Below are positions 32,145 to 51,788 of a DNA stretch of 64,000 bases, one piece after another. The notes below the pieces were generated by a model. That model was given only the letters and a program-made list of their open reading frames with translations. It was not told where the DNA came from and did not search any database. The stretch is from Rhizobiaceae bacterium (lineage in GTDB: Bacteria; Pseudomonadota; Alphaproteobacteria; Rhizobiales; Rhizobiaceae), in the NCBI GenBank assembly GCA_049289295.1, contig JBATLL010000070.1:109204-173203 (forward strand). Direction: 5' to 3'. The translations under genes and the position numbers were made by a program. Every line of letters begins with the position of its first letter. Position 1 is the stretch's first letter.

Positions 32145-32374
32145 CTTCGGTTCCAACCAGTCATTGACGCAACGCCAAACCGCGTTGCAATTCACCGCCA
32201 ACCTGTATGACCCAAACCGATCGCTCCGGCAAACACAGGATTTTCCATTGCCGGCAATTCAGCCTGTACAGCAGCGTGAACATGTTTTCGTAGGCTCGAT
32301 AAGTGATTGCCTATCATCGGCAGACGGTCAGTTTTCCTCTATGCTATTGTCACCTTGAACGGGATTGAACAGAC

Positions 32375-33682: not shown

Positions 33683-33703
33683 CCCGTATCTCGATGTCCG
33701 GCG

Positions 33704-36973: not shown

Positions 36974-37496
36974 TCAGGTCTTTCAGGATTTCAGGGCGCA
37001 CCAGCAGGATCAGTCCGCGCATGATCATGACCAGTGCCGTCACGAATGTCATGATCGCGATGAACCAGCCGATGTAGAAGGTCGGAATGGAGAGATATTC
37101 GGTGAGGTCCCCGTAGCTGCGCGCGCGCTCTGCCAGATCGACAGTCCTGCTCGCCGGAAACACCAGCAGCACACCGCAGGCCAGCGTCACCACTGCATCG
37201 AGCAGGCGCGAAATGCCGAGGGAATCGAGGAACCTGTCCAGCAGGTCAACGCTGATGTGCTGGGCATTGGCGGAAACGACGGGCAGGGCGGAAAAGACGA
37301 TGATCGCCATGGCAATGCGGGTCAGTTCGGTCGCCGCTTCGATCGGCGCGGAAAATGCCGAGCGCATGATGACGTCGGCAAAGGTCAGGATCATCAGAAG
37401 AAACAGGCACAAGGATGCCAGTACCAGCGGAAGCTGCAGGATCCGGGCTGCTATCCTCTGGAAACGGTTCATGCCTTCCTGCCCTCCTGCGTGCAT
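36966..37496 (-). CDS. dctQ: TRAP transporter small permease
   Basis: 176 aa and 4 TM. Lies between dctP and dctM. Confidence 0.85.
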   Translation of the reverse strand: MHAGGQEGMNRFQRIAARILQLPLVLASLCLFLLMILTFADVIMRSAFSAPIEAATELTRIAMAIIVFSALPVVSANAQHISVDLLDRFLDSLGISRLLDAVVTLACGVLLVFPASRTVDLAERARSYGDLTEYLSIPTFYIGWFIAIMTFVTALVMIMRGLILLVRPEILKDLNA

Positions 37497-37534
37497 GGAA
37501 AATGCCGGGGAGCATCGCCCCCCGGCATCCCGGC

Positions 37535-38557
37535 TTACTTGCCGTAGGAAGCCATTTCCGATTTCACCATGTCATAGGCTGCCTGCGCATCGATCCCGAG
37601 CGCTGAAATCTCGCCGATGATCTTTGTGCGCACGCGTTCTGCCATTTCGCCAAATTTGGCCTGGTCAGCATCGCTGGCAGCGACAATCTTGTTGTCAGCC
37701 GCAGCTTCGGTCGCCGCGCGGGCCACCTGGTCACTCTTGTCCCAGACCATGCCCATCATCCGCGAGGCTGGCTCGCCGAACACCTTTTCTTCCAGCGCCT
37801 TGCGGACATTTTCCGGCAATGCGTTGAACTTGTCCTCATTCATGATGACCGCGAAGGCACCACGATAGAACCCGCCAGGCATTTCGTAGACATTCTTGGC
37901 GACTTCATTGAGCTTGAAGCTGATGCGTTCGCCCAGATTCATTGCGACCGCGTCGGCTGCGCCAGAGGCGAGCGTTTCATAGACCTTTGGTGCGGGAACC
38001 TGAATTCCGACAAGGCCGAGTTCAGCACCCACATCGGCGGAAACACCGCCGCCAAGACGGGTCTTCAACCCATTGAGATCACCAAGCGAGGCGATTGGCT
38101 TGTTGGAATGGATCTGGCCAGGACCATGCGTCGTCAGGGCGATGACCTTGGTGCCCTTGTGCTCGTCGACCTTTGCCAGATGCGCTTCGTGCACATGCCA
38201 GTAGGCCACGGAAGCAGCTTCCGCATTGCCTTCGTAACCCGGCAGCTCGATCAGCTTCGTGGCAACAAACCGACCCGGCTGATAGCCGTTGAAGATGATG
38301 GTGATGTCTGCAGCGCCGTCCAGGACGAGGTCCATCTGCGCTGGTGGTGGAGCAAGCCCCATCTTGATTTCTGCAGATACCTGCCCCTCGGTTGCTTCAT
38401 CCATCATCGTGATGAGGCCCTGGAGCATTTCGGTGTTGATCGGATGTGTCGGCGGAAGCCAGCTGGAAATGGTCAGATTGAAATCTGCAGCCAGTGCCGA
38501 AGTGGTTGTCCAAAGCGCCAATGCGGTACCGGCAAGAAGCTTGGTAATGCTGTTCAT
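37535..38557 (-). CDS. dctP: TRAP transporter substrate-binding protein
   Basis: 340 aa. Signal peptide LLAGTALALWTTTSALA. GGAGG RBS 5 nt upstream. Confidence 0.9.
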   Translation of the reverse strand: MNSITKLLAGTALALWTTTSALAADFNLTISSWLPPTHPINTEMLQGLITMMDEATEGQVSAEIKMGLAPPPAQMDLVLDGAADITIIFNGYQPGRFVATKLIELPGYEGNAEAASVAYWHVHEAHLAKVDEHKGTKVIALTTHGPGQIHSNKPIASLGDLNGLKTRLGGGVSADVGAELGLVGIQVPAPKVYETLASGAADAVAMNLGERISFKLNEVAKNVYEMPGGFYRGAFAVIMNEDKFNALPENVRKALEEKVFGEPASRMMGMVWDKSDQVARAATEAAADNKIVAASDADQAKFGEMAERVRTKIIGEISALGIDAQAAYDMVKSEMASYGK

Positions 38558-38609
38558 GCGTTCCTCCCTGTTCTGTACTGCCCGTCGGAATTTCCGGTCA
38601 GTCTCAAGA

Positions 38610-38646
38610 AATATGCAATATCATATAATAATATGCAATGTCATAT
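38610..38646 (-). promoter_or_regulatory. Two 16-bp palindromic operators ATATG-N6-CATAT embedded in a putative TTGCAT-17-CATATT promoter of the TRAP operon
   Basis: atatgcaatatcatat (38611-38626) and atatgcaatgtcatat (38631-38646), with centres 20 bp apart, in an AT-rich gap. On the minus strand the distal palindrome supplies TTGCAT and the proximal one supplies CATATT. Confidence 0.6.
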
Positions 38647-39186
38647 ATTGTGCCCACCTGCACCATTGGCTGCGGCCATTTGACGGACGGAGGCGGGACG
38701 AAGTCGATCATTGGCTTCAAGGTTCTCCAGCAACGCATTGAGCGTCCGCTTGATCTGTGCGCCTGCAGTTCCTTCGAGCGATCCCAGAAGTTCAGCCTCG
38801 TGCTGGCGTGCATCGCTCACCAGACGTTCGGCAAGTTCGCGCCCCTTGTCGGTCAGGAAGATCCGAACGCGGCGTCGGTCCGCAGGATCGTCACGGCGCG
38901 AAACAAGGCCGCGCTCATCCATCTGGATGATGATCTTGGTCAGCCTCGACTGTTCGATCATGGCATAACGCGAAAGCTCGGTTACCATCGAACCGTCCCA
39001 GTCAGTCAGGCAGGCCAGTACCCGCCATTCAGGCACGCGCAGGCCCGATGCACGCACATGCGCATGAAACTGCCCGCTTGCCGCCTCGCTTGCCGCTGCC
39101 AGCAAGTACAACAGGTAATCGGGAACGAATGGCTGGCGCTCCAGCCGTGTCGTGGACAAGTCTCCATGTCCGGTCTTCTTGCCCAT
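38641..39186 (-). CDS. MarR family transcriptional regulator
   Basis: 181 aa from MGKKTGH. Winged-helix core VTELSRYAMIEQSRLTKIIIQMDERGLVSRRDDPADRRRVRIFLTDKG. Confidence 0.9.
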   Translation of the reverse strand: MGKKTGHGDLSTTRLERQPFVPDYLLYLLAAASEAASGQFHAHVRASGLRVPEWRVLACLTDWDGSMVTELSRYAMIEQSRLTKIIIQMDERGLVSRRDDPADRRRVRIFLTDKGRELAERLVSDARQHEAELLGSLEGTAGAQIKRTLNALLENLEANDRLRPASVRQMAAANGAGGHNI

Positions 39187-39248
39187 GGCGTTCCGCTTCT
39201 GTCTGTTGAACCGGCAATATACCGGTTTTTGATCGGGTAAAAACCCCC

Positions 39249-39277
39249 TTGACACGAATTATATGAAAATTCATATT
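39249..39277 (+). promoter_or_regulatory. Putative sigma70 promoter TTGACA-17-CATATT with a third ATATG-N6-CATAT palindrome over the spacer and -10
   Basis: TTGACA at 39249-39254, atatgaaaattcatat at 39261-39276 and CATATT at 39272-39277. Located in the marR / oxygenase-operon divergent region. Confidence 0.55.
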
Positions 39278-39296
39278 TCCTGGCGGAGGGAACCAG

Positions 39297-40256
39297 GTGG
39301 CAGAATCCTTTGATCTCACAATGGTGTCCGCGCGACCGCTGAGCGAGCGCATCCGCGAGATTGTCTTTCGCGCGAGTGGCGCTGCGCGCCTTCCTGGCTG
39401 GTCGCCGGGTGCCCATCTGAAGTTCGCCACACCCGCCGGTGAACGGTGCTATTCGCTCGTTCAGATGGAACCCGGAGACGGGTTCGACGAGCCGCATCAA
39501 TATCGGTTCGCTGTACAGCTTGAGGAGCAGACCGCTGGCGGTTCGCGCCATCTGCACGACCTGAAACCAGGAGACGGAATCAAGGTCAGCGGACCGCACA
39601 ATGATTTTGCCCTGATTGCCGGTGCGTCAGCTGTTCTCGTTGCCGGTGGCATCGGCATTACACCGATCCTTTCCATGGCCAGGGCATTGCTGGCCGCCGG
39701 TACTGCCTTCGAATTCCACTATGCCTGCCGCAACCGCGAGGTCATGGCATATCGCGATGAAATTCAGACGCTGTTCACCAACAGGGCACACCTTCATTTC
39801 GACGAGGAAGCATCGAGCCAGCTGGATCTTGAAGGACTTCTGGGCAGCGCCGAACCCTCAGCCCATGTTTATGTGTGCGGTCCGCGCGGCCTGATAGAGG
39901 CCGTAAAGTCGGCTGCCGTTGCCAGGGGGCTTGCCGGTAGCCAGATCCATTTCGAACTCTTCGCATCGCCTTCCCCCAGCACAGGCGATGAGGCATTCGA
40001 GGTGGTCGTGAATTCGACCGGGCAGGCCTTCAACGTGCCGCCAGGAAAGAGCATTATCGAGGTGCTGGAAGCTTCGGGCCTGGACCTGGTCTATGATTGC
40101 CAGAGAGGCGACTGTGGCATCTGTCAGACAGGCGTGATCGAAGGCGTGCCCGATCATCGGGATGTTGTTCTGAGCGAGGGCGAGCGGCAATCAGGCAAAC
40201 TGATGCAGATCTGCGTCAGCCGGTCGAAGACGCCACGTCTGGTACTGGATCTGTAG
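39297..40256 (+). CDS. PDR/VanB-type oxygenase reductase (FNR-like flavin/NAD domains plus C-terminal plant-type 2Fe-2S)
   Basis: 319 aa. GGIGITP NAD motif and C-terminal CQRGDCGICQ...C cluster. GGAGGG RBS before GTG. Confidence 0.9.
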   Translation: MAESFDLTMVSARPLSERIREIVFRASGAARLPGWSPGAHLKFATPAGERCYSLVQMEPGDGFDEPHQYRFAVQLEEQTAGGSRHLHDLKPGDGIKVSGPHNDFALIAGASAVLVAGGIGITPILSMARALLAAGTAFEFHYACRNREVMAYRDEIQTLFTNRAHLHFDEEASSQLDLEGLLGSAEPSAHVYVCGPRGLIEAVKSAAVARGLAGSQIHFELFASPSPSTGDEAFEVVVNSTGQAFNVPPGKSIIEVLEASGLDLVYDCQRGDCGICQTGVIEGVPDHRDVVLSEGERQSGKLMQICVSRSKTPRLVLDL

Positions 40257-40267
40257 GGAGGATCGAC

Positions 40268-41623
40268 ATGGGAAGATACACCGGTAACCCACAGGCAATC
40301 CGCAATCTGTTTCGCGGCAACGAAGTGCACAGGGACGTCTATATCGACCCGGAAATCTATCGGCTCGAAATGAAGCAGCTGTTTGCAAACGCATGGGTGT
40401 TTGTGGGGCATGACAGCCAGACGCCCAATGCCGGTGACTATTTCAACACAATGGTCGGCGATCAGCCGGTCATTCAGGTTCGCCACAGCGATGGCGAGAT
40501 ACACGTCCTCTACAATCGCTGCCCGCACAAGGGCACCAAGCTCGTCATCGACAGGACAGGCAATACCGGCAAGTTCTTCCGGTGTCCCTATCATGCATGG
40601 TCGTTCAAGACCGACGGCTGCCTGCTCGCCATACCCCTCAGGAAGGGTTACGAAAACACCGGCTTCGAAAAGAGCGCCAGCGGCAAGGGCATGGCTTCCG
40701 TTGGCGCGGTAAAGAACTATCGCGGCTTCATCTTCTGCCGTCTCGCTCCGCAAGGCATCTCGTTCGAGGAATTCTTCGGGGATTCGCTTTCTTCCCTCGA
40801 CAACATGGTCGACCGTTCGCCTGCTGGTCGCCTAGAAATCGCCGGACCACCGCTTCGCTACATGCATCATTGCAACTGGAAGATGCTCGTTGAAAACCAG
40901 ACCGACACCTGCCACCCGATGGTTGCGCATGAAAGCTCTGCCGGCACCGCAGTCAAGCTCTGGGAAGCGCTCGACATGCCGGAAGGCTCCCCGCTGCCGC
41001 CAGCCATGGAAATCATCGCGCCTTTCACCAGCCCGTACGAATTCTTTGAAAAGATGGGCATCAGGACCTGGCCGAACGGGCACGGCCATACAGGCGTGCA
41101 CCATTCCATACACTCCAACTATTCGGCCATCCCCGGTTACCTTGAAAAGCTGACCCAGGCATGGGGCGAGGAAAAGGCCAAAGCGGTGCTCGCCGAAAAC
41201 CGGCACAACACGGTCTACTTCCCGAACATCATGATCAAGGGACCAATCCAGCAATTGCGGGTTTTCCTGCCGCTGGCCGCAAACAAGACGCTGGTCGAAA
41301 GCTATATCTACCGGCTAGTTGACGCTCCCGAGCAGCTCACCGCACGAACCGCCATGTACAACAGGATGATCAACGCGCCGACGTCGATTGTCGGACATGA
41401 TGATCTGGAAATGTACGAGCGCGCACAGGAAGGGCTGGAGGCCGATGGCCTTGAATGGGTCAACATCCAGCGCCTGTACGAGGACAATGAAGACTATTCG
41501 GGCGAGCAGGTGGAAAACGGCACGACCGAGCGCCAGATGCGCAACCAGTTCGACGCCTGGGTGAAGTTCATGGTCGCAGGCATGGACGACAAGGCGGAAG
41601 GAAGGCGGGAGGCGGCCGAATGA
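40268..41623 (+). CDS. Rieske aromatic ring-hydroxylating oxygenase, alpha subunit
   Basis: Rieske motif CPHKG...CPYHAW and mononuclear iron motif DTCHPMVAH. GGGAGG RBS. The start lies inside the longer ORF-track call. Confidence 0.92.
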   Translation: MGRYTGNPQAIRNLFRGNEVHRDVYIDPEIYRLEMKQLFANAWVFVGHDSQTPNAGDYFNTMVGDQPVIQVRHSDGEIHVLYNRCPHKGTKLVIDRTGNTGKFFRCPYHAWSFKTDGCLLAIPLRKGYENTGFEKSASGKGMASVGAVKNYRGFIFCRLAPQGISFEEFFGDSLSSLDNMVDRSPAGRLEIAGPPLRYMHHCNWKMLVENQTDTCHPMVAHESSAGTAVKLWEALDMPEGSPLPPAMEIIAPFTSPYEFFEKMGIRTWPNGHGHTGVHHSIHSNYSAIPGYLEKLTQAWGEEKAKAVLAENRHNTVYFPNIMIKGPIQQLRVFLPLAANKTLVESYIYRLVDAPEQLTARTAMYNRMINAPTSIVGHDDLEMYERAQEGLEADGLEWVNIQRLYEDNEDYSGEQVENGTTERQMRNQFDAWVKFMVAGMDDKAEGRREAAE

Positions 41624-42099
41624 AGATCACCAGGGATCAGCTGATCGACTTTCTCTATGATGAAGCGCGCATGCTCGACGAAGGCCGCTTTGACGAATGG
41701 CTCGCCTTGTGGATGAAGGATGGGCACTACTGGATGCCGCTCGACTACAAGCAGACCGATCCGCTCAATGTCACCTCACTGATGTATGAGGACCTGTTCA
41801 TGCTGAAGTTGCGCGTCGAGCGTCTCAATGGCGCGCGCACCTTTTCCCAGAAACCCAAAAGCCGGTGTCATCATGTCCTGCAGCGACCATTCGTCGACAG
41901 TATGGACGATGCTGACGGGAGATATGTCACAACCACCTTCATGCACTATGTCGAAACCCGCCTGGACGAGCAGTTTCTTCTGGCGCTAACCGCGCACCAT
42001 GAACTGGCACTTGTGGACGGTGCCCTGCGCATCGCCAACAAGCGGGTCGACATTCTCAACTGCGACGCCGCCTTCCGTAATATCCAGCTTCTGCCATGA
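41620..42099 (+). CDS. Ring-hydroxylating oxygenase beta subunit (NTF2-like)
   Basis: 159 aa. ATGA overlap with the alpha subunit. LYDEARMLDEGRFDEWL-type N-terminus. Confidence 0.88.
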   Translation: MKITRDQLIDFLYDEARMLDEGRFDEWLALWMKDGHYWMPLDYKQTDPLNVTSLMYEDLFMLKLRVERLNGARTFSQKPKSRCHHVLQRPFVDSMDDADGRYVTTTFMHYVETRLDEQFLLALTAHHELALVDGALRIANKRVDILNCDAAFRNIQLLP

Positions 42100-43787
42100 T
42101 CGCTGAAAGTGCCTGGGCGGCAACATCTCCCGGTGAGACGGTGTACGAATTGTTCGCCGGGATTGCGGCGCAATTTCCCTCGAGACCGCTTTTCCATGTC
42201 CTCGCGGAGACGGCAGAAAAATACGGCATTGAACCAGGCGAACGCCCATATGCCGACATACTGGGCCTTGCAGATGATCTTTCTGAAAGACTGAAGGCGG
42301 CAGGGTACTGTGCCGGGCATCGCGTCATGCTCCTGCTTGAGAACCGACCGGAACATTTCGTCTGGCTGCTCGCCCTGAACCGGATCGGCGCTTCGGTCGT
42401 GCCGGTGAACCCGGACCTCAGGCACGCCGAACTCGTCTATATGGCAGGCCATTCCCGCCCAGTGCTGATCGTGTCTGTCACTGCACGCATGAATGATCTG
42501 GAAACCGCCGCGCGCGAGGCGGGCCTGGATGCCGCCTGTATCTCCGCAAGCGCAACGGTCCATGACATGCCATTGCCGGTCCCGGGCAGTTCGGGAACCG
42601 TAGCCTTGCGCAGCGCGGACGGTCTGGCGATCTCCTCAGGCGAAGGGTTGGAAGCAGCACTTCTTTACACTTCTGGCACGACCGGCAGTCCGAAAGGCTG
42701 CATTCTCACCAACAACTATTTCCTGGAAGCAGGGCGCTGGTATGCCGGGACCGGCGGCCTGTGTGCGCTGGAAACCGGCGGTGAACGAATGATCACGCCG
42801 CTTCCCGTTTTCCACATGAATGCGCTGGCCTATTCCTTCATGGCAATGGTCAGCGTCGGCGGATGCCTTGTCTGCCTTGACCGCTTTCACCCGGCTACCT
42901 GGTGGGCAAGTGTTCGCGAAAGCCGCGCCACCTGCCTTCACTATCTGGGTGTCATGCCGACCATGCTGATGGGTGCCGAACCCTCGCCATCAGATCGCAA
43001 TCACAATGTGCGCTTCGGGTTTGGCGCGGGAGTTGATCCGAAACTGCATGCCGCTTTCGAAGTTCGCTTTGGTTTCCCGCTGATTGAAGCCTGGGCCATG
43101 ACGGAAACGGGTGCCGGTGCAGTCATTTGCGCCAATCGCCAGCCGCGCCGCGTTGGCGAAAGTTGTCTGGGCAAGATCGAGGGCGGATTGGAAATTCGCC
43201 TTGTTGATGACAGCGGAAACGACAGCGAACTGGGACCGGGCGAATTGCTGGTGCGGCGCATGGGTGATGATCCGCGCCGCGGTTTCTTTTCCGGATATTA
43301 TGCGAACGAGGAAGCCACTGCCCAGGCCTGGCAAGATGGCTGGTTCCATACGGGCGATATCGTGCGCCGTGAGGCTGACGGTTCGGTGTTCTTCGTCGAC
43401 CGGCGCAAGAACGTCATTCGAAGGTCTGGCGAAAACATCGCCGCGGTCGAGGTGGAATCGGTGCTGATGCGCCATCCAGCCATTGCCGCGGCTGCAGTGA
43501 CAGCGGTGCCGGATGCGGTGCGTGGCGACGAGGTATTCGCCTGCATCTTGGTCCGTCAAACCGCTGATCGCAAGGCCGGCAATGCGTTGGCGCGGGAAGT
43601 CGTTTCATGGTGCCTTGCCCAACTCGCCTATTACAAGGCACCGGGTTACATTGCATTTGTAGACGAACTGCCCTTGACTTCGACCCAGAAAATCCAGCGA
43701 GGCGAGTTGAAGGTTTTGGCCGCGCGACTGGTCGGTGATGCTGCAACTGCGGACACAAGAGCGATGAAAAAGCGGACTGCCGCATGA
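42096..43787 (+). CDS. AMP-forming acyl/aryl-CoA ligase
   Basis: 563 aa. Motif LLYTSGTTGSPKGC and C-terminal YKAPGYIAFVDELPLTSTQKIQR. Confidence 0.9.
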   Translation: MIAESAWAATSPGETVYELFAGIAAQFPSRPLFHVLAETAEKYGIEPGERPYADILGLADDLSERLKAAGYCAGHRVMLLLENRPEHFVWLLALNRIGASVVPVNPDLRHAELVYMAGHSRPVLIVSVTARMNDLETAAREAGLDAACISASATVHDMPLPVPGSSGTVALRSADGLAISSGEGLEAALLYTSGTTGSPKGCILTNNYFLEAGRWYAGTGGLCALETGGERMITPLPVFHMNALAYSFMAMVSVGGCLVCLDRFHPATWWASVRESRATCLHYLGVMPTMLMGAEPSPSDRNHNVRFGFGAGVDPKLHAAFEVRFGFPLIEAWAMTETGAGAVICANRQPRRVGESCLGKIEGGLEIRLVDDSGNDSELGPGELLVRRMGDDPRRGFFSGYYANEEATAQAWQDGWFHTGDIVRREADGSVFFVDRRKNVIRRSGENIAAVEVESVLMRHPAIAAAAVTAVPDAVRGDEVFACILVRQTADRKAGNALAREVVSWCLAQLAYYKAPGYIAFVDELPLTSTQKIQRGELKVLAARLVGDAATADTRAMKKRTAA

Positions 43788-44959
43788 AGAATGGCTCGCG
43801 CCAATCCTATGACGGCGCAGTGGTGACTGCGCCCGTCACGATTCCCTACGTACGCTACAGCCAGGAAACGGCGCATTGGTGGATCGCCCGCGCCTTGCGT
43901 GGCGTCCTGGACAAAGCGGGGCTGAGAACCGGCGAGCTCGATGGTTTTTCCGTGTCCAGCTTCACCCTCTTCCCCGACACACCTGTCGGCCTGACCCAGC
44001 ATCTGGGTTTGAGCCCGCGATGGCTCGACTCAATACCGATGGGTGGCGCCAGTGGCGTCGTGGCCATGCGCCGCGCAGCACGCGCCGTCCAGTCGGGCGA
44101 TGCGAGATACGTTGCCTGCGTGGCGGGTGATGCCAACCACATCGACAGTTTTCGCCGGCTGCTTTCGTCCTTTTCGCGCTTTGCGATGGATGCGTCCTAT
44201 CCTTACGGCTATGGCGGCCCAAATGCGAGTTTCGCATTGATCGCAGATGCCCACATGCAGCAATACGGCACCACGCGGGAAGACTTCGCGCGCGTCGCCG
44301 TGGCCCAGCGCGACAATGCGCTGAGGAACCCAGATGCGATCATGAAGACTGCCCTGACGATGGAACAGTTCATGGCTGCACGTCCAATTGCAGACCCGCT
44401 CTGTCTTTTCGATTGTGTGATGCCTTGTGCTGGCGCGGAAGGTTTCCTCGTCATGCGCGAAGACGAGGCGGTCCGCCGCAATTTGCCCTTTGCCAGGATC
44501 GCTGGAACCATCGAGCGCCACAATGCCTTCCCCGACGATCCGATCCAGTTGCGCGGCGGCTGGGCCATGGATGTGGACGAACTCTATGCCATGGCGCAGG
44601 GCAGTCCCGGTGAAATCGATGTTCTCGAAACCTATGACGATTATCCGGTCATCTCCATGATGCAGATGGAGGACCTCGGATTTTGCGCCAAGGGGGAAAG
44701 CGGCAAGTTCGTTCGCGACCATGATCTCACCATTTCGGGCGATTATCCACACAACACTTCCGGTGGACAATTATCGGCCGGTCAGGCTGGTGCGGCAGGC
44801 GGATACCTGGGGATGGTGGAAGCCATACGCCAGGTGACGGGAGAAGCAGGTCCAACCCAGGTGCCCGATGCCATGACAGCCATGGTCTCGGGCTTTGGCA
44901 TGATCAATTATGACCGGGGCCTGTGTTCAGCAGCGGCAATATTGCGGGGTGCGCGATGA
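43784..44959 (+). CDS. Thiolase-fold protein, SCP-x/Ltp-like, apparently lacking the Cys nucleophile
   Basis: 391 aa. NTSGGQLSAGQAGAAGG C-terminal thiolase-like loop. At the nucleophile position (about residue 88) the sequence is MGGASG rather than C-[AS]-[ST]-G. Confidence 0.8.
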   Translation: MKNGSRQSYDGAVVTAPVTIPYVRYSQETAHWWIARALRGVLDKAGLRTGELDGFSVSSFTLFPDTPVGLTQHLGLSPRWLDSIPMGGASGVVAMRRAARAVQSGDARYVACVAGDANHIDSFRRLLSSFSRFAMDASYPYGYGGPNASFALIADAHMQQYGTTREDFARVAVAQRDNALRNPDAIMKTALTMEQFMAARPIADPLCLFDCVMPCAGAEGFLVMREDEAVRRNLPFARIAGTIERHNAFPDDPIQLRGGWAMDVDELYAMAQGSPGEIDVLETYDDYPVISMMQMEDLGFCAKGESGKFVRDHDLTISGDYPHNTSGGQLSAGQAGAAGGYLGMVEAIRQVTGEAGPTQVPDAMTAMVSGFGMINYDRGLCSAAAILRGAR

Positions 44960-46206
44960 GTGAACCCCTTTCCAGGCCGCCGAAGAAAAACCCGCAACTG
45001 CGCCAGAAGGTTGCAACCCTGCCGCCGCTGGCGCGATCCAGGGCAGCCATGGGGCTCACTGCAGCCGCCGCACGTGGTTCCTTCAGCCTCCAGCATTGCA
45101 GCGAATGCGCCACCGTCCAGTATCCACCGCGTGATGCCTGCAGCGCCTGCCTTTGTGTTGATCTGGAATGGCGAGAGACCGACCGGGGCGGCAGCGTTGT
45201 GGCGCAAACCACGATCCATGCCTCGCCCGATCCCTACTATCGCCAGCGCTTGCCGTGGCGCTCGGGTCTCGTGAAACTGGATGCCGGACCATCGATCTTC
45301 TGCCACCTGCATGGCGATGTGCGGCGCGGTGATCGCATAAGCATGGATATCAAGCTCGACAGGGCGGGGCAGGGCGTGATGATCGCGCTGCCAGCCGGGA
45401 GGATGCCGAACATGGAAGACGATCCGCAATTGCGAACGCTCACCGCAAATCCGCGACACCGGCGCGTGCTGGTCACTGACATTCGCGCGCCCTGGGCAGT
45501 GCCGCTGGTGCATGAGCTCATCAAGGCGGGCGCTTCCCACGTCTTTGTCGGCGAGGCGGAAGGGTGGCGGCGCGCCACACCCCATGAAAGCCTGGCTTCG
45601 CTGGAGCAGGTCTCGATCCTGCAGCTTGATGTGACAGACGCCAACTCGGTGAAGAAGCTGGCGGCAGGCATTGGCGGCAAGACAGACATTCTCATCAACA
45701 CCGCGCGCCATGTTCGCCCCGGTGGGGTAGTGGGTGGAGACACGGTCTTTGCCAGGGACGAGATGGAAGTGAACGCGTTTGGCCTTATGCGCCTTGCGCA
45801 GGCATTCGGACCGGCGATGGCATCGCGCACGGATGACGGCATCAACAGCGCCGCGGCATTTGTGAACATACTCTCGGCAAGCGCAATGTCTGCCGAGCCC
45901 GGTTACGGTGCATTCTCGGCCAGCCAGGCGGCAGCCTATTCGATCAGCCAGACATTGCGCGGCGAATTCCGCGCCTCCGGCCTTCGCGTGATGAACGTGT
46001 TTGTCGGACCGACGGATGATGAATGGCACCAGCAGATGCCGCCGCCGAAGGTCGCGCCGCAGGCACTTGCCAAAGCCGTCGTCGATGGGCTGGTTTGTGG
46101 TCTGGAGGATGTCTATTGCGGGGATTTCGCAAAAGACATCGAGGAACGCTGGCGCAGGGACGCCAAGGTGCTGGAGCGTGAACTGACCGGAGGCGAACAT
46201 GGCTGA
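44956..46206 (+). CDS. DUF35 (Zn-ribbon plus OB-fold) protein fused to a degenerate SDR-like domain
   Basis: CSEC...CSAC four-Cys ribbon followed by an OB-fold (aa 40-150). From aa 170 a Rossmann-like domain begins, with VTDIRAPWAVP in place of TGxxxGxG and FSASQ in place of YxxSK. Confidence 0.8.
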   Translation: MSEPLSRPPKKNPQLRQKVATLPPLARSRAAMGLTAAAARGSFSLQHCSECATVQYPPRDACSACLCVDLEWRETDRGGSVVAQTTIHASPDPYYRQRLPWRSGLVKLDAGPSIFCHLHGDVRRGDRISMDIKLDRAGQGVMIALPAGRMPNMEDDPQLRTLTANPRHRRVLVTDIRAPWAVPLVHELIKAGASHVFVGEAEGWRRATPHESLASLEQVSILQLDVTDANSVKKLAAGIGGKTDILINTARHVRPGGVVGGDTVFARDEMEVNAFGLMRLAQAFGPAMASRTDDGINSAAAFVNILSASAMSAEPGYGAFSASQAAAYSISQTLRGEFRASGLRVMNVFVGPTDDEWHQQMPPPKVAPQALAKAVVDGLVCGLEDVYCGDFAKDIEERWRRDAKVLERELTGGEHG

Positions 46207-46981
46207 AATTCTGGCATGCCTGGCCAGCGCGCTGGCAGGCGGCGATGTCGAGATCATCGATCTCACTCACACGCTTGACCCCGATTTTCCTGTAATTGTT
46301 CTGCCGCCGGAATTTGGCCAGTGCGCGCGTTTCCGCATGGAGGAAGTGTCTGCATATGATCATCGCGGACCGGCCTGGAAATGGCACAATATCTCGATGA
46401 ATGAACATACCGGCACGCATTTCGATGCGCCCGTCCACTGGGTTTCCGGACGCGATGTCGCCAATGGCGCGGTGGATGAAATAGACCCGGCCATGTTCAT
46501 CGGACCGGTCGTGGTCCTCGATTGCTCAAAGGGCGCTTCGTCCGACGACGATTTCGAACTGACGCCAAAGATCATCGCCGACTGGGAAGTGCAGCACGGG
46601 AAAATCCCTGCCGGAAGCTGGGTCCTCATGCGCACCGACTGGTCCAGGCGTACTGGCGCTCAATATCTCAACATGCGTGATGACGGCCCGCATTCTCCAG
46701 GCCCCACCCCAGCGGCAATCGAGTGCCTGCTTGAAAGAAACATTCGTGGTTTCGGAACGGAAACCGTAGGCACCGACGCTGGCCAGGGCATGCACTATTC
46801 GCCGCCCTATCCAGCCCACCATCTGCTGCACGGTGCCGGAAAATACGGCCTGCAATGCCTGAAGAACCTCGATCGCCTGCCGCCGACTGGCGCTATTCTC
46901 GTCGCTCCACCGCTCAAGATCAAAGGGGGGACAGGTAGTCCCTTGCGTGTTCTTGCAATCACGCCAGCAAGAGGGAAATGA
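46199..46981 (+). CDS. Cyclase-family metal hydrolase (kynurenine formamidase / isatin hydrolase fold)
   Basis: 260 aa. Signature HTGTHFDAPVHW. 8-nt overlap with the upstream gene. Confidence 0.85.
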   Translation: MAEILACLASALAGGDVEIIDLTHTLDPDFPVIVLPPEFGQCARFRMEEVSAYDHRGPAWKWHNISMNEHTGTHFDAPVHWVSGRDVANGAVDEIDPAMFIGPVVVLDCSKGASSDDDFELTPKIIADWEVQHGKIPAGSWVLMRTDWSRRTGAQYLNMRDDGPHSPGPTPAAIECLLERNIRGFGTETVGTDAGQGMHYSPPYPAHHLLHGAGKYGLQCLKNLDRLPPTGAILVAPPLKIKGGTGSPLRVLAITPARGK

Positions 46982-47712
46982 GCCGCATGACCAGCCATAC
47001 AGCCCTGATAACCGGAGCCAGCAAGGGTATAGGCGCGGATCTTGCACAAAGGCTGCTCGAACGCGACTACACGGTGATCAACCTGTCCAGAAACGCGGCA
47101 GGATTCAGCCATGACAGGCTGGTCAACGTCACCTGCGATCTGCTTGACCCGCAGGATGTTGCCAGCGCAGCGGCCGCAATAGCAGCAGAACACGAGGTTA
47201 CCCACCTGGTGCACAATGCCGGCCTGGTCTGGCCGAAGCTGATAGAAGATGCCGAGCCACAGGACATTACCGGTCTGGCGCAATTGCATCTTGGTTCGGC
47301 ATTGACCTTGCTGAAGGCAGTCCTGCCGGCAATGAAGCACAGGAAGTTTGGCCGCGTCCTGTTCAACGGATCGCGCGCTGCACTTGGTGTCCCGACCCGG
47401 ACCGCCTATTCCGCGACAAAGGCGGGAATGATGGGTATGGCGCGCACATGGGCCCTGGAACTGGCACCCCATGGCATCACCGTCAACGTCGTAGCACCTG
47501 GCCCGATCCAGACGGACAATTTCTGGGGCATCATCGAAAAGGGCAGCGAAAGGGAAGCAGAACTGGCAAGACGCTTGCCTGTCGGACGCCTGGGAACTGT
47601 TGGCGATGTCACGAATGCATTCCTGTTTTTCTGCGATCCCGCGAGCGGCTTCGTGACCGGCCAGACATTGTATGTCTGCGGTGGTGCCAGCATCGGCGCG
47701 ATGGCGCTCTAG
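46978..47712 (+). CDS. Short-chain dehydrogenase/reductase (canonical)
   Basis: ITGASKGIG cofactor motif and YSATK catalytic motif. ATGA overlap with the upstream gene. Confidence 0.9.
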   Translation: MSRMTSHTALITGASKGIGADLAQRLLERDYTVINLSRNAAGFSHDRLVNVTCDLLDPQDVASAAAAIAAEHEVTHLVHNAGLVWPKLIEDAEPQDITGLAQLHLGSALTLLKAVLPAMKHRKFGRVLFNGSRAALGVPTRTAYSATKAGMMGMARTWALELAPHGITVNVVAPGPIQTDNFWGIIEKGSEREAELARRLPVGRLGTVGDVTNAFLFFCDPASGFVTGQTLYVCGGASIGAMAL

Positions 47713-47861
47713 CAGATTTTTACTGGCCTGCCTTTGCGAAGCCACGCAAAATTCCCGCAGGGTTGATTGCGCCACCCAGGCGGGCAATTGGCACATTTTC
47801 GCTTGCTTATCGAAACTTATCGGGGATGATGGAGCAAGAAGTTAGCCTGGGAAGGGAATGC

Positions 47862-48659
47862 ATGACAGGCAGTGAAGTTGTCGAGGCCAGGCGCAATGGC
47901 GTTTCGACGCTTGATGTAGTCGATCTACACAAGTCCTACGGCGAGCTGGAAGTTCTCAAGGGCGTATCCATGAGTGCGAAGGAAGGCGATGTGGTTTCCA
48001 TCATCGGCTCCAGCGGCTCGGGCAAGAGCACCTTCCTGCGCTGCATCAATCTTCTGGAACAGCCGACAAGGGGCACCATTCGCCTGCAAGGGGAGGATCT
48101 GCGCTTTCGCTCGTCAGCCTCTGGAATGGTCCCCGCAGACAAGAAGCAGGTCCAGCGGTTCCGCGCCCAGCTCGGCATGGTCTTCCAGAGCTTCAATCTG
48201 TGGCAGCACATGACGATCCTCCAGAATGTCATAGAGGGGCCCGTCCATGTGCTTGGCGTACCCAAGGCCGAGGCCGTGGAACGCGCCGAGAAGATACTCG
48301 ACCGCGTCGGCCTGTTGGACAAGCGGGACCAGTTTCCCGCCTTCCTGTCAGGTGGTCAGCAGCAGCGCGCAGCCATTGCACGCGCGCTGGCGATGGAACC
48401 CAAGGTCATGCTTTTCGACGAACCCACCTCTGCACTCGACCCGGAACTGGTCAGTGAGGTGCTCAAGGTCATTCGCACGCTGGCTGAGGAAGGTCGCACG
48501 ATGATCCTCGTCACGCATGAAATGAAATTTGCCCGCGATGTCTCGACGGATGTCATTTTCCTGCATCAGGGCAAGGTTGAGGAACAGGGGCCACCCGCCC
48601 AGGTTTTCAACAACCCGGCAAGCGAACGCTGCCGGGCGTTTGTACAATCCGTACACTGA
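47862..48659 (+). CDS. Polar amino-acid ABC transporter ATP-binding protein
   Basis: Walker A GSSGSGKST, signature LSGGQQQR and Walker B MLFDEPTSALD. The start is taken at MTGSEVV; the upstream part of the ORF-track call overlaps the SDR gene. Confidence 0.9.
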   Translation: MTGSEVVEARRNGVSTLDVVDLHKSYGELEVLKGVSMSAKEGDVVSIIGSSGSGKSTFLRCINLLEQPTRGTIRLQGEDLRFRSSASGMVPADKKQVQRFRAQLGMVFQSFNLWQHMTILQNVIEGPVHVLGVPKAEAVERAEKILDRVGLLDKRDQFPAFLSGGQQQRAAIARALAMEPKVMLFDEPTSALDPELVSEVLKVIRTLAEEGRTMILVTHEMKFARDVSTDVIFLHQGKVEEQGPPAQVFNNPASERCRAFVQSVH

Positions 48660-48679
48660 TAACAAGAGGGAGACAGTTC

Positions 48680-49447
48680 ATGAAGAAACTGACTGTAGTG
48701 CTGGCCGGTGCCGCAATGGCAATGGCCTTTGGCCTTCAGATCGCCGCCGCCGATGTGAAGATCGGCTTTGCTGCGGAAAACTATCCACCATTCACCGACA
48801 AGGGCGCGGATGGAAAATGGGTCGGCTGGGAAGTTGAAATCCAGCAGGCACTTTGCGCCGCCATGGATGAGAAATGCGAGATCGTGGAAGTGGCATGGGA
48901 TGGCATCATTCCCGCACTTCTGGCCAAGAAGATCGACGGCATCGTCGCCTCCATGTCGATCACCGAGGAGCGCATGCAGACGATCAATTTCTCTGACAAG
49001 TATTACAACACGCCTGCCGTGATTGTGGCACCGAAGGATTCAGCAATCAGCGGCGATCCGGCATCGGTCAGCGGAAAGATTCTCGGTGTTCAGGTTTCGA
49101 CAGTCCACCAGAACTATGCCGAAAAGCACTTCGGCGGCGCGACGGTCAAGACCTACAATACCTTCGATGAGCACAACCAGGACCTCGTCGCAGGTCGTGT
49201 TGATGGCGTGGTGGGCGACTCGATCGCTTTTCAGGATTTCCTCAAGAGCGAAGCTGGCGCCTGCTGCGAAGTGAAGGGCGAACTCAATGACGTGGCCGTG
49301 TTCGGTCCTGGCGTAGGCGTCGGACTGCGCAAGGAAGACACCGAATTGCAGGCCAAGATCAACGCGGCGATCAAGAAGATTCGCGAAGATGGCACCTATG
49401 ACGCCATTTCCAAGAAGTACTTCGACTTCAACATCTACGGCGACTGA
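48680..49447 (+). CDS. Polar amino-acid/opine-type ABC substrate-binding protein (family 3)
   Basis: 255 aa. Signal peptide MKKLTVVLAGAAMAMAFGLQIAAA. LAO/octopine-nopaline-binding-like layout. Confidence 0.88.
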   Translation: MKKLTVVLAGAAMAMAFGLQIAAADVKIGFAAENYPPFTDKGADGKWVGWEVEIQQALCAAMDEKCEIVEVAWDGIIPALLAKKIDGIVASMSITEERMQTINFSDKYYNTPAVIVAPKDSAISGDPASVSGKILGVQVSTVHQNYAEKHFGGATVKTYNTFDEHNQDLVAGRVDGVVGDSIAFQDFLKSEAGACCEVKGELNDVAVFGPGVGVGLRKEDTELQAKINAAIKKIREDGTYDAISKKYFDFNIYGD

Positions 49448-49458
49448 TCGTCGGCGGT

Positions 49459-49489
49459 TCCGGCCAGGGGGCATTGTCCTTCCTGGCCG
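49459..49489 (+). other. Intercistronic 9-bp GC stem-loop between the binding-protein and permease genes
   Basis: ccggccagg-N13-cctggccgg is a perfect inverted repeat with no T-tract. It may act as an mRNA-stabilising hairpin. Confidence 0.5.
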
Positions 49490-49529
49490 GTCATCCCCCT
49501 GAATTCATACCCGCCAGGACCGCATCTGG

Positions 49530-50243
49530 ATGGACCGTGCAATAGAACTCCTGTCTTTGACACCGCCTGGCTGGGGCGGCAACCTGCTGCGCGGGTTGGC
49601 GAGCACGATCCAGATCGCTCTGGGTGCCTATGCGCTTGGTTTGATGCTTGGCCTGGCTGGTGCGTTTGGAAAGATCTATGGCGGGCGCGTGCTGCGCACC
49701 GCACTTGAGGTCTATACTACCCTGATACGGGCCATACCCGAGCTCGTGCTGATCCTTTTCCTTTATTATGCCGGAACGGACGCGCTAAACATCCTGCTGG
49801 AAAGCATGGGCTTTGAGCGCATCGACATCAGCGGCCTTTGGGCCGGCATCTATGTGCTGGGCTTTGTCCAGGGGGCCTATTCGACCGAGGTGCTGCGCGG
49901 GGCCATTCTCGCGGTTCCTCCGGGCCAGATCGAAGCGGCGCGCGCCATCGGCATGTCGGGCTTGAAGACCCACTGGCGCATCGTCATTCCAGCAATGTTA
50001 CCCTTCGCACTGCCGGGACTTGCCAATCTGTGGCTGATCGTGACCAAGGATACCGCACTTCTGGCGGTCGTCGGTTTCAGTGAACTGGCCCTTGAGACGA
50101 AGCAGGCTGCCGGTTCAACGCGCGCCTACTTCATGTTCTACATGGCCGCCGGTGCGCTCTACCTGGCACTGAGTCTGTTCTCGACCTTCCTTTTCAACAT
50201 GGTGGAACGTCACTTCCGCCGTGGCCAGCCGGCCCAGGGGTAG
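49530..50243 (+). CDS. Amino-acid ABC transporter permease (HisQ-like)
   Basis: 237 aa and 5 TM. EAA-type loop EAARAIGMSGLKTHWRIVIP. Confidence 0.9.
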   Translation: MDRAIELLSLTPPGWGGNLLRGLASTIQIALGAYALGLMLGLAGAFGKIYGGRVLRTALEVYTTLIRAIPELVLILFLYYAGTDALNILLESMGFERIDISGLWAGIYVLGFVQGAYSTEVLRGAILAVPPGQIEAARAIGMSGLKTHWRIVIPAMLPFALPGLANLWLIVTKDTALLAVVGFSELALETKQAAGSTRAYFMFYMAAGALYLALSLFSTFLFNMVERHFRRGQPAQG

Positions 50244-50247
50244 CGCC

Positions 50248-51743: not shown

Positions 51744-51788
51744 GATGACCTTCAAACCGGGTATCCAGCAAGGGGCCGGAGTCCTGCC

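Follow-up and report, generated by a model that had tools for sequence, protein, structure and literature searches.

The closest described system is the iad operon of Variovorax paradoxus CL14, which degrades indole-3-acetic acid (IAA) (Conway 2022, PMC9613470; Ma 2023, PMC10374108; Jiang 2025, PMC12633357). Its purified oxygenase IadCDE converts free IAA, with a Kd of ~17 μM for the binding of the free acid to IadD/E, and IadF-J did not bind IAA (PMC10374108). The oxygenase was reported to be a monooxygenase, with the second oxidation being completed by the SDR protein IadJ, and an iadF deletion mutant builds up C10H9NO4, which was assigned as dioxindole-3-acetate (PMC12633357). The iac system (Pseudomonas putida 1290 type), which also catabolizes IAA aerobically and has a MarR repressor, employs other enzymes (iacA/iacE etc.) and ends in catechol rather than anthranilate (PMC9613470). 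Two steps of the iad pathway are poorly understood, and the operon sequence presented here helps to settle how they work. The present analysis adds retro-aldolase features of IadG, a probable role of IadH as its DUF35 partner, and a conserved palindrome at iadC and the TRAP genes.

A probable iad regulon on a Rhizobiaceae chromosome

We analysed a 64,000-nucleotide stretch of DNA (the window) from a Hoeflea-like member of the Rhizobiaceae. Its region 35660-47712 is very probably an iad regulon of the marine alphaproteobacterial type, and the operon in it is an ordinary member of an already described kind, the bacterial operons that break down auxin via isatin. Eight plus-strand genes occupy positions 39297-47712. 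ORF listing, translation and a junction script confirmed the layout from which a preliminary description of this DNA had proposed one coupled operon, with start/stop overlaps at six of the seven junctions (4-nt ATGA overlaps at 41620, 42096, 43784, 44956 and 46978, and an 8-nt overlap at 46199). The seventh junction, iadC-iadD, is an 11-nt gap that holds the ribosome-binding site GGGAGGA. For the Rieske alpha gene the start codon is ATG 40268, and the longest-ORF start at 40097 was rejected. The unit reaches further upstream, into a divergent MarR gene (38641-39186, minus strand) and TRAP genes (35660-38557, minus strand), and the locus is chromosomal, flanked by housekeeping genes.

Comparison with the Variovorax iad products, as suggested in the preliminary description, showed that IadC-J match V. 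paradoxus iadCDEFGHIJ gene for gene, collinearly and over their full length, with 43-63% identity. The complete collinear set CDEFGHIJ was found in 48 of 80 related loci, 35 of which also carry the divergent MarR gene. The earlier family label, ipf-type, was not borne out and should be replaced by iad; the guess that IAA is the substrate gains from this orthology and from the IadD pocket, IadR and IadI matches described below. A ring-cleavage dioxygenase was not found by Pfam in the scanned ORFs of at least 200 aa (most, not all, of those in the window), in agreement with its earlier reported absence. Every function given here is transferred from orthologues of 43-79% identity.

Substrate of the oxygenase and order of reactions

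The oxygenase system is encoded by the first three genes. The product of iadC (39297-40256, plus strand) is a PDR/VanB-type NADH reductase with flavin, NAD and plant-type 2Fe-2S parts (Pfam NAD_binding_1 and Fer2; 43% full-length identity to V. paradoxus IadC). It is followed by iadD (40268-41623, plus strand), the predicted IAA-specific Rieske oxygenase alpha subunit (Pfam Rieske and Ring_hydroxyl_A; PDB 9o71_A, 4.3e-167, and 7yls_B, 2.3e-166), and iadE (41620-42099, plus strand), the beta subunit (Pfam Ring_hydroxyl_B; PDB 7yls_A, which is IadE, 2.1e-44; 51% identity to V. paradoxus IadE). IadD is 54-56% identical to Variovorax IadD, and all FeS and Fe ligands and eight of the nine IAA-pocket residues are kept, invariant across 81 clade members. 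Leu211 of the Variovorax pocket is Gln in all 81, so the specificity of IadD could be shifted. This substitution, and the presence of a TRAP system in place of the IAA-specific IadK2, would fit an iad-like operon that in this marine lineage serves a different indole or aryl acid, such as phenylacetate, a halogenated auxin or an indole metabolite of algae. We regard that as improbable, since the eight pocket residues are the same as in the IAA-bound Variovorax structure and the isatin hydrolase further downstream requires a skeleton of the indole-3-acetate type.

The CoA ligase gene iadF (42096-43787, plus strand) encodes an AMP-forming enzyme (Pfam AMP-binding and AMP-binding_C; 56% identity to V. 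paradoxus IadF) that would act on dioxindole-3-acetate, and iadJ (46978-47712, plus strand) encodes a classical SDR (Pfam adh_short_C2, 3.5e-42; motifs TGASKGIG and YSATK; 53% identity to V. paradoxus IadJ). In the ipf system, CoA activation comes before oxygenation. The protein families of that system recur in the present operon (a CoA ligase, Rieske alpha and beta subunits, a thiolase-fold protein and DUF35), and the preliminary description had adopted the same order: ligase first, then the Rieske oxygenase on IAA-CoA or another aryl-alkanoyl-CoA, and finally clipping of the side chain. We consider this order very improbable. It is contradicted by the orthologous purified IadCDE, which transforms free IAA (IadD/E Kd ~17 μM), and IadF does not bind IAA (PMC10374108); moreover, the acid that accumulates in the iadF deletion mutant is already doubly oxidised (PMC12633357), which places CoA activation after oxygenation. 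The polar pocket residues Lys322 and Arg329, which could hold a free carboxylate, are invariant in the present clade and also speak against a CoA ester as substrate. Oxygenase activity on the free acid thus overturns the earlier reaction order and leaves the substrate call unaffected.

In the order that we favour, with oxygenation first, IadCDE (reductase and Rieske alpha3beta3) would oxidise the pyrrole 2,3-bond of free IAA, as shown for the Variovorax orthologues. After hydration, IadJ would serve as the dehydrogenase that finishes dioxindole-3-acetate formation, a role transferred from Variovorax, where it was shown by genetics and isotope tracing (PMC12633357). IadF would then make the CoA thioester of dioxindole-3-acetate, in line with the Variovorax mutant phenotype.

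Removal of the side chain and hydrolysis of isatin

The product of iadG (43784-44959, plus strand; Pfam Thiolase_C_1; 63% identity to V. paradoxus IadG) has a thiolase fold without the nucleophilic Cys and is a putative retro-aldolase of a YDDY type. Among solved structures it comes closest to two aldolases, CtSal (9myr, 4.4e-47) and TcLtp2 (6ok1_A, 3.8e-33). Gly88, Y284-D-D-Y287, Gln329 and Gln334 are invariant in 61 of 61 homologues, and the nucleophilic Cys of thiolases is Gly in all of these as well as in Variovorax IadG. In alignments, the YDDY motif stands opposite YDCY in CtSal and YDHF in TcLtp2, and IadG has both of the Gln residues found in CtSal. Tyr284 may act as the base; IadG has no counterpart of Tyr344, the other catalytic Tyr in Ltp2, or of CtSal Cys304, so that naming Asp286 as the likely acid is a guess.

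Pfam confirmed the protein families given in the preliminary description, except that the sixth gene, iadH (44956-46206, plus strand; Pfam zf-ChsH2, OB_ChsH2_C and adh_short), does not encode a bare DUF35 protein. Its 416-aa product joins DUF35 (C4 zinc ribbon and OB; residues ~36-130) to a domain with the whole SDR fold (adh_short, residues 184-358), the same architecture as in V. paradoxus IadH (51% identity). The DUF35 part matches ChsH2(DUF35) (6ok1_B, 6.7e-7), and its zinc ribbon C-x2-C-x10-C-x2-C is invariant in 57 of 57 homologues. The SDR motifs are degenerate: T-D-A-R-x-P-x-A stands in place of TGxxxGxG, 41 of the 57 homologues have Phe where the catalytic Tyr should be, and the Lys is missing from all 57 of the clade. 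From these features we infer that IadH is the DUF35 partner, or scaffold, of the aldolase IadG.

The Variovorax preprint reads IadG and IadH differently, as a ketothiolase and an alcohol dehydrogenase (PMC12633357). The acetyl group would then be removed reductively to give dioxindole (C8H7NO2), and IadI would be a broad amidase acting on dioxindole instead of isatin. Consistent with this, Variovorax without IadI accumulates C8H7NO2, the formula of dioxindole, and not isatin (C8H5NO2), and C8H7NO2 also accumulates in a strain expressing iadCDEFGH+JK2 (PMC12633357). V. paradoxus IadH also retains the SDR lysine (FSASK). In our structure model of IadH (pLDDT 82) the SDR fold is complete, with a TM of 0.88 to its nearest structural relative 5u4s, an NADP binder, and IadH could thus conceivably take part in redox chemistry. 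Nevertheless, we find this reading unlikely, because of the eroded SDR motifs of IadH and the Gly that replaces the nucleophilic Cys throughout the IadG family. In addition, the hydroxyl of dioxindole-3-acetyl-CoA is tertiary and therefore not oxidisable to the 3-keto form that thiolysis requires. CtSal, which has the same Gly as IadG, is incapable of thiolysis (PMC12329534), and the C8H7NO2 could come from unrelated reductases acting on accumulated isatin.

The character of IadI points in the same direction. The iadI gene (46199-46981, plus strand; Pfam Cyclase; 58% identity to V. paradoxus IadI) encodes a predicted Mn-dependent isatin hydrolase of the cyclase fold, with PDB matches to isatin hydrolase A (5nnb/5nna, 6e-143). 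It is 79% identical over 252 aa to this enzyme of Roseibium aggregatum (LaIHA), which was crystallised with isatinate bound and is itself 100% identical to the iadI product encoded in that species' own syntenic operon (L037:15810-16565). The HxGTHxDxPxH motif is kept in 61 of 61 homologues. Both the isatin hydrolysis and the retro-aldol cleavage to isatin and acetyl-CoA that had been put forward earlier are supported, the former by the identity to LaIHA and the latter by the Gly and YDDY of IadG, its closeness to Sal and Ltp2, and the DUF35 partner. In the retro-aldol route, IadG seated on the DUF35 part of IadH would cleave the tertiary beta-hydroxyacyl-CoA, and IadI would convert the isatin to isatinate, as shown for LaIHA. 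Conversion of isatinate to anthranilate would follow, by steps encoded outside the window.

Regulation and uptake

Upstream of the operon lies iadR (38641-39186, minus strand), a predicted MarR-family repressor (Pfam MarR) whose most likely start is ATG 39186, the listed ORF running to GTG 39255. Its best solved relative is MarR_3CDH of R. pomeroyi (2.7e-47), an IadR that binds IAA with a KD of 0.24 μM, tighter than any other MarR tested (PMC9613470). The equivalents of the IAA contacts Ser28, His32, Arg46, Tyr15 and Trp45 are kept; the retained Ser/His/Arg triad, which contacts the IAA carboxylate, supports the MarR control suggested in the preliminary description. Relative to MarR_73, two indole-contacting residues differ (Ala18 to Tyr and Val65 to Tyr), which might be taken as a further sign of a substrate other than IAA, but the tightly binding MarR_3CDH belongs to the same clade and shares Tyr 18 (PMC9613470).

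A promoter-like site precedes iadC (39249-39277, plus strand; TTGACA-17-CATATT, agreeing with the consensus at 10 of 12 positions), its end lying 20 nt ahead of the start codon; its TTGAC box and spacing are conserved among related intergenic regions. The -10 hexamer is overlapped by a perfect palindrome, ATATGAA-AA-TTCATAT (39261-39276), and ATATGAA-N2-TTCATAT is the putative IadR operator. Of 75 related loci, 44 have the motif at most 150 nt upstream of iadC, and just 7 matches lie elsewhere in 1.53 Mb. Two more operator-like palindromes, ATATGCAATATCATAT (38611-38626) and ATATGCAATGTCATAT (38631-38646), each with 2 mismatches to ATATGAANNTTCATAT, lie 54-89 nt upstream of dctP and overlap promoter-like hexamers on the minus strand. 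The window thus has 3 matches in total, against 0.07 expected, and 12 of 25 related loci have the motif upstream of dctP. Homology and comparative conservation suggest that IAA-bound IadR would leave the palindrome over the iadC -10 hexamer and the two sites upstream of dctP.

The TRAP genes are dctM (35660-36973, minus strand; large membrane subunit; Pfam DctM, 4.5e-95), dctQ (36966-37496, minus strand; small membrane subunit; Pfam DctQ, 1.7e-17), which is syntenic with iad genes, and dctP (37535-38557, minus strand; solute-binding protein; Pfam DctP, 2.8e-27; best solved relative 4p56_A, 6.6e-57). Homologues of dctM (77-84% identity) adjoin iadR/iadC in the Hoeflea, Oricola, Lutimaribacter and Ruegeria marisflavi loci, and of the 48 loci with a complete iad set, 21 have a DctP homologue of at least 50% identity. 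Judged by this adjacency and synteny, DctPQM probably imports the auxin, an aromatic acid, and IAA uptake through it would be the first step of the pathway.

Comparison with known systems

The V. paradoxus CL14 operon agrees with the present one in its eight genes and their order, the DUF35-SDR fusion in IadH, the IadG YDDY/Gly features and a MarR with the IAA-carboxylate triad. It differs in its pocket Leu211 (Gln here) and in an IadR of only 34% identity. Unlike in V. paradoxus, the indolepyruvate-oxidoreductase-like iadA/iadB, by which Conway et al. recognised iad-like loci (PMC9613470), the ABC binding proteins IadK2/K3 and a second Rieske pair were not found in the window, which has a TRAP transporter instead; visual inspection of the region between iadR and iadA of V. 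paradoxus (L081) revealed no clear copy of the palindrome. None of the genes seen here is of the iac type. To the ibuprofen genes ipfABDEF of Sphingomonas Ibu-2 the likeness is by protein family, along with the shared logic of taking an acyl-CoA side chain off an aromatic acid; the iad oxygenase uses the free acid as its substrate, the ligase acts only once that acid has been oxidised, and IadJ and IadI are additional.

With the steroid retro-aldolases Sal-Shy(DUF35) and Ltp2-ChsH2(DUF35), IadG and IadH share the thiolase fold with Gly for the nucleophilic Cys, a Y-D-x-aromatic motif, the Gln pair of CtSal and a fused C4 zinc-ribbon/OB DUF35; a catalytic role of the Tyr that opens the motif, the DUF35 protein as obligate partner and a beta-hydroxyacyl-CoA as substrate would be shared as well. 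The third motif residue is Asp in IadG, whereas it is Cys in Sal and His in Ltp2; the DUF35 of IadH sits at the N-terminus, with an SDR-like domain rather than a MaoC hydratase as its fusion partner, and the IadG substrate would be a non-steroid.

The nearest loci are the marine ones of Roseibium/Labrenzia aggregata, Ruegeria pomeroyi (megaplasmid), Sulfitobacter (plasmids) and Hoeflea, whose IadD proteins are 74-87% identical to the present one. No palindrome match was found in the R. pomeroyi megaplasmid copy. The locus is plasmid-borne in Roseibium, Sulfitobacter and R. pomeroyi and chromosomal here, and the TRAP genes, upstream here, lie downstream of iadJ in Roseibium. The arrangement of MarR, CDEFGHIJ and TRAP genes and the promoter/operator motif are held in common.

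Operon layout and identity

Eight plus-strand genes, iadCDEFGHIJ, occupy positions 39297-47712 of the window. Their description as a series with overlapping junctions was borne out by ORF listing, translation and a junction script: start and stop codons overlap as ATGA at 41620, 42096, 43784, 44956 and 46978 and by 8 nt at 46199, and the iadC-iadD junction is an 11-nt gap with a GGGAGGA ribosome-binding site. [quoted passage not shown] The genes are iadC (39297-40256; PDR-type reductase, 43% identity), iadD (40268-41623; Rieske alpha subunit, 54%), iadE (41620-42099; oxygenase beta subunit, 51%), iadF (42096-43787; CoA ligase, 56%), iadG (43784-44959; thiolase-like, 63%), iadH (44956-46206; DUF35-SDR, 51%), iadI (46199-46981; cyclase fold, 58%) and iadJ (46978-47712; SDR, 53%). 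The start of iadD is the ATG at 40268; the longest-ORF start would be 40097.

Pfam returned the domains named in the preliminary description, with one amendment: the DUF35 unit of the sixth gene product is fused to a complete SDR-fold domain. This protein, IadH (416 aa), carries zf-ChsH2 and OB_ChsH2_C (residues ~36-130), followed by adh_short (184-358). None of the eight proteins scored above an NCBIfam equivalog cut-off, which accounts for the generic names given by automatic annotation. A terminator scan gave no convincing intrinsic terminator after iadJ, the RNA fold of 47705-47865 was no better than that of shuffled sequences (z = +1.07), and Rfam and tRNA scans found nothing in the window.

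Searches against solved structures were decisive for the identity of the operon proteins. The alpha subunit matched Variovorax IadD (9o71_A, 4.3e-167; 7yls_B, 2.3e-166), after which the next matches were ordinary ring-hydroxylating oxygenases at ~1e-40, and the beta subunit matched IadE (2.1e-44). The divergent MarR-type repressor IadR (38641-39186, minus strand) gave 3CDH, a MarR protein of R. pomeroyi, as its best match (2.7e-47), followed by the IadR structures of Variovorax and Bradyrhizobium; its identity to the V. paradoxus MarR is 34%. Jiang et al. (PMC12633357) describe the Variovorax core as a reductase (iadC), the large and small Rieske subunits (iadD/E), an acyl-CoA synthetase (iadF), a 'thiolase' (iadG), an 'alcohol dehydrogenase' (iadH), a 'kynurenine formamidase' (iadI) and a dehydrogenase (iadJ). 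The gene order in the window is the same and all matches to the V. paradoxus locus are collinear; Variovorax IadH likewise has 416 aa with DUF35 and SDR domains. The operon is therefore a further member of the known, well-studied auxin-degradation system. As anticipated, no ring-cleavage dioxygenase was present among the window ORFs scanned, nor were anthranilate-degrading genes, and the window does not encode the steps beyond isatinate.

Substrate and order of reactions

The preliminary description had proposed IAA as the candidate substrate under MarR control, and the IadD pocket, the IadR contacts and the isatin-hydrolase type of IadI all support this. Ma et al. (PMC10374108) reported Cys85, His87, Cys106 and His109 as [2Fe-2S] ligands of IadD, His216, His221 and Asp377 as iron ligands, and Asn210, Leu211, His216, His221, Phe251, His311, Lys322, Arg329 and Tyr362 as the IAA pocket. 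In the window IadD all metal ligands and eight of the nine pocket residues are identical, the sole change being Leu211 to Gln, and these residues (with Gln at 211) are invariant across 81 clade members. For the repressor, the IAA contacts described by Conway et al. (PMC9613470) in MarR_73 are Tyr15, Ala18, Ser28, His32, Trp45, Arg46 and Val65. The expected divergent MarR gene retains Tyr15, Ser28, His32, Trp45 and Arg46, including the IAA-coordinating Ser28, His32 and Arg46; its position 18 is Tyr, as in 3CDH, which binds IAA at 0.24 uM (PMC9613470).

The same description had modeled the pathway on the ibuprofen (ipf) operon, with CoA activation first and the oxygenase acting on the thioester. 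Data on the Variovorax orthologues contradict this order. Purified IadC together with IadD/E transforms free IAA, and IadD/E binds IAA with a Kd of ~17 uM while IadF-J show no IAA binding (PMC10374108). In isotope-tracing experiments IadCDE introduced a single oxygen from O2, after which hydration and dehydrogenation by IadJ yielded dioxindole-3-acetate; this acid accumulates when iadF is deleted (PMC12633357). These orthologue data imply that the ligase IadF acts on the oxidised product; by analogy, CoA ligation is taken to follow oxygenation here, with the oxidised acid as the predicted IadF substrate. In a tblastn search of plasmids with IadG, no ipf-bearing record occurred among the best 40 matches listed, which were iad-type and more distant.

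A candidate retro-aldolase for side-chain removal

The side-chain step of the iad pathway has been assigned by annotation only, to a ketothiolase and an alcohol dehydrogenase (PMC12633357). In the PDB search, the best solved relatives of IadG were the steroid retro-aldolases CtSal (9myr, 4.4e-47) and TcLtp2 (6ok1_A, 3.8e-33), with true thiolases ranking behind. In the alignment Gly88 of IadG takes the place of the nucleophilic Cys of the 7yvy thiolase, where CtSal likewise has Gly, and the nucleophile position is Gly in all 61 IadG homologues; for a CtSal-type enzyme with Gly at this position thiolysis is impossible (PMC12329534). Tyr284, equally invariant (61/61), corresponds in the alignment to the catalytic base of TcLtp2 (Tyr294) and of CtSal (Tyr302). 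It lies in a YDDY motif that is found in every one of the 61 homologues and also in Variovorax, whereas Sal has YDCY and Ltp2 YDHF in its place. Gln329 and Gln334 are the counterparts of Sal Gln347 and Gln352, but the known general acids, Cys304 of Sal and Tyr344 of Ltp2, are absent: Asp286 takes the position of Sal Cys304 and Ltp2 His296, and Gln334 that of Ltp2 Tyr344. Because these two residues stand at known general-acid positions, we regard YDDY as a third variant of the motif.

Dioxindole-3-acetyl-CoA is a tertiary beta-hydroxyacyl-CoA, and its oxidation to a 3-ketoacyl-CoA is impossible. Retro-aldol cleavage would for this reason be the direct route, with IadG and IadH predicted to convert dioxindole-3-acetyl-CoA into isatin and acetyl-CoA. 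The retro-aldol step suggested earlier also gains support from the closeness of IadG to CtSal and TcLtp2, its Gly in place of the nucleophile and its DUF35 partner. In the open-access literature searched, we found neither dioxindole-3-acetyl-CoA nor a retro-aldol step in IAA catabolism.

Among 72 near-full-length neighbours of IadG (50%-identity cluster representatives) none has Cys at the nucleophile position, and 33 carry YDDY, down to ~29% identity, so that the motif marks a wider uncharacterised clade beyond IadG itself. Many of the representatives P0247-P0345 are 29-47% identical to IadG, Cys-less and YDDY-bearing, and others read YDCF/YDCY, YDAF or YDSF. Judged from these residues, P0247-P0345 suggest a large set of uncharacterised, probable CoA-ester aldolases annotated as thiolases.

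The partner gene iadH adjoins iadG with an ATGA overlap; Sal and Ltp2 likewise have DUF35 partners. The IadH N-terminus matches ChsH2(DUF35) (6ok1_B, 6.7e-7) and forms a canonical zinc ribbon, C-x2-C-x10-C-x2-C, whose cysteines (C48, C51, C62 and C65) are invariant in 57/57 homologues. The SDR-like domain lacks the cofactor motif TGxxxGxG, reading T-D-I-R-A-P-W-A where the clade consensus is T-D-A-R-x-P-x-A. Phe replaces the catalytic Tyr in 41 of the 57 homologues, and the catalytic Lys is lacking in all 57 (Gln, Asn or others); Variovorax IadH differs in that it has kept the SDR Lys, though not the Tyr. The fold itself is intact (model pLDDT 82; TM 0.88 to 5u4s). On these motif losses the domain may be a catalytically dead scaffold, a 'pseudo-SDR', although its nearest structure, 5u4s, is an NADP complex.

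Probable isatin hydrolysis by IadI

Isatin released by IadG-IadH would be the exact substrate of IadI. In the PDB search IadI matched Mn-dependent, cyclase-fold isatin hydrolases (5nnb, 6.4e-143; 5nmp, 2.5e-98; 4j0n, 1.8e-84) and kynurenine formamidase at 2e-8 only. The isatin hydrolysis previously proposed for the cyclase-fold protein is supported by its 79% identity to isatin hydrolase A (LaIHA) and by an invariant metal motif, HxGTHxDxPxH. Furthermore, the iadI product of Roseibium aggregatum IAM 12614 (locus L037, 15810-16565) has the same sequence (100% identity) as the crystallised enzyme, isatin hydrolase A (5NNA/5NNB), and its gene sits inside a complete syntenic iad operon; nothing in the literature searched connected the isatin hydrolase structures with the iad pathway. 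A compound C8H7NO2 has been seen in Variovorax without IadI (PMC12633357); other enzymes could have formed it by reducing isatin. For two steps assigned in the literature only by annotation, the sequence evidence points to a retro-aldolase and an isatin hydrolase, which is a testable correction.

Promoter, putative operator and proposed TRAP uptake

A sigma-70-like promoter, TTGACA-17-CATATT, lies at 39249-39277 and ends 20 nt before iadC. An inverted-repeat search of 39120-39320 had been empty with a minimum arm of 8 nt, and an operator-like palindrome with 7-nt arms came to light only through comparison of 46 aligned orthologous intergenic regions. Conserved among them are a TTGAC box and, after it, ATATGAA-N2-TTCATAT, a sequence overlapping the -10 hexamer. 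In the window the palindrome is perfect at 39261-39276, and two copies with two mismatches each (38611-38626 and 38631-38646) lie 54-89 nt upstream of dctP, giving three matches against 0.07 expected. Across 80 loci it was found upstream of iadC in 44/75 loci and of a close dctP in 12/25, with seven occurrences elsewhere in 1.53 Mb; the association with dctP includes Roseibium, where the TRAP genes are downstream of iadJ. The iad locus on the R. pomeroyi megaplasmid lacks the palindrome, and no copy stood out by eye in the iadR-iadA region of Variovorax; the palindrome is therefore clade-specific rather than universal to iad. Upstream of iadC in locus L055, from a metagenome-assembled genome (MAG) named Rhizobiaceae bacterium, two operator-like palindromes, ATACATGAAAATTCATGA and TATATGATTTTTCATATT, stand in tandem.

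The TRAP transporter genes dctPQM (35660-38557, minus strand) are adjacent to iadR. The best solved relative of the binding protein DctP is 4p56 (6.6e-57), and this and several lower matches are proteins that we take to be binders of aromatic acids. We infer that IadR controls both the iad operon and a TRAP system for auxin uptake, which together form its regulon. Neither a TRAP-linked iad locus nor an IadR regulon with TRAP genes was found in the open-access literature searched. Candidates for an auxin-responsive promoter and an auxin uptake system in marine hosts are thereby provided by the operator, which is conserved, and by the TRAP genes regulated together with iad.

Distribution and neighbourhood

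The window belongs to the chromosomal core and carries mutL, guaA, guaB, lpxK, kdtA and der. A 'Rhizobiaceae bacterium' MAG encodes a protein with 100% identity to its IadH, and Hoeflea alexandrii and H. olei are the closest species representatives by IadD (86-87% identity). There are at least 588 IadD relatives among species-representative genomes, from which 80 loci were kept for comparison. A complete collinear CDEFGHIJ was present in 48 of the 80; among these 48, a divergent MarR gene accompanies the operon in 35 and a close DctP is encoded in 21. Plasmid copies of the locus also exist in Roseibium, Sulfitobacter and R. pomeroyi, and there are many of them in the first two genera. Loci of the marine type are thus very common in marine Alphaproteobacteria, which bears on algal-bacterial auxin signalling.

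In nine of the 80 loci (L005, L018, L028, L029, L034, L035, L051, L053 and L072), including those of Bradyrhizobium sp. ORS 111 and Gemmobacter lutimaris, iadCDE is directly followed by iadJ without iadFGHI. IAA could there be inactivated to dioxindole-3-acetate without side-chain removal, or iadFGHI may reside elsewhere in the genome.

Two flanking clusters were rejected as parts of the system, each being syntenic with iad in 0/80 loci. Upstream, 29848-34543 encodes a family III CoA-transferase (minus), an acyl-CoA dehydrogenase (minus), an MmgE/PrpD-family protein (plus) and a MaoC-like dehydratase (minus), and resembles a C5-dicarboxylate (itaconate/methylsuccinate-type) CoA pathway. Downstream, the rejected genes (47862-50940) are those of a polar-amino-acid ABC transporter (ATPase, binding protein and two permeases), followed within 47862-52691 by a small amidinotransferase/arginine-deiminase-fold protein (50937-51743) and an EamA-type exporter; this stretch follows iadJ immediately, no clear terminator separating the two, and is not conserved beside iad elsewhere. 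A PhoX-type alkaline phosphatase (53380-55077, minus strand) and an SbmA/BacA-family transporter (55869-57170, plus strand) are unrelated to iad.

Comparison with known systems

The operon itself adds one more genome to the known iad loci. With V. paradoxus IadA and IadB as tblastn queries, there was no match to these iorA/iorB-like proteins in the 64-kb window, and no homologue of the ABC solute-binding proteins IadK2/K3 was found there. Conway et al. used iadA/iadB as markers for calling iad-like loci (PMC9613470). In Variovorax both genes, and IadK2/K3 counted with them, are unnecessary for converting IAA to anthranilate (PMC12633357), and because of this dispensability we consider iadA/iadB a marker rather than a functional requirement.

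Altogether, we lean, with some reserve, towards regarding IadG-IadH as a new branch of the Sal/Ltp2 retro-aldolases, one with a non-steroid substrate, a YDDY motif, a dead-SDR DUF35 partner and isatin and acetyl-CoA as products; the pathway would be fed in marine Alphaproteobacteria by an auxin-specific TRAP transporter under IadR control. If so, the published 'ketothiolase plus alcohol dehydrogenase' assignment for iad would be corrected, and proteins of the Cys-less YDDY type may form a wide family of CoA-ester aldolases. In its uptake genes the locus differs from the Variovorax iad system, in that the TRAP transporter DctPQM occupies the neighbouring position, as against the ABC-type IadK2 of Variovorax.
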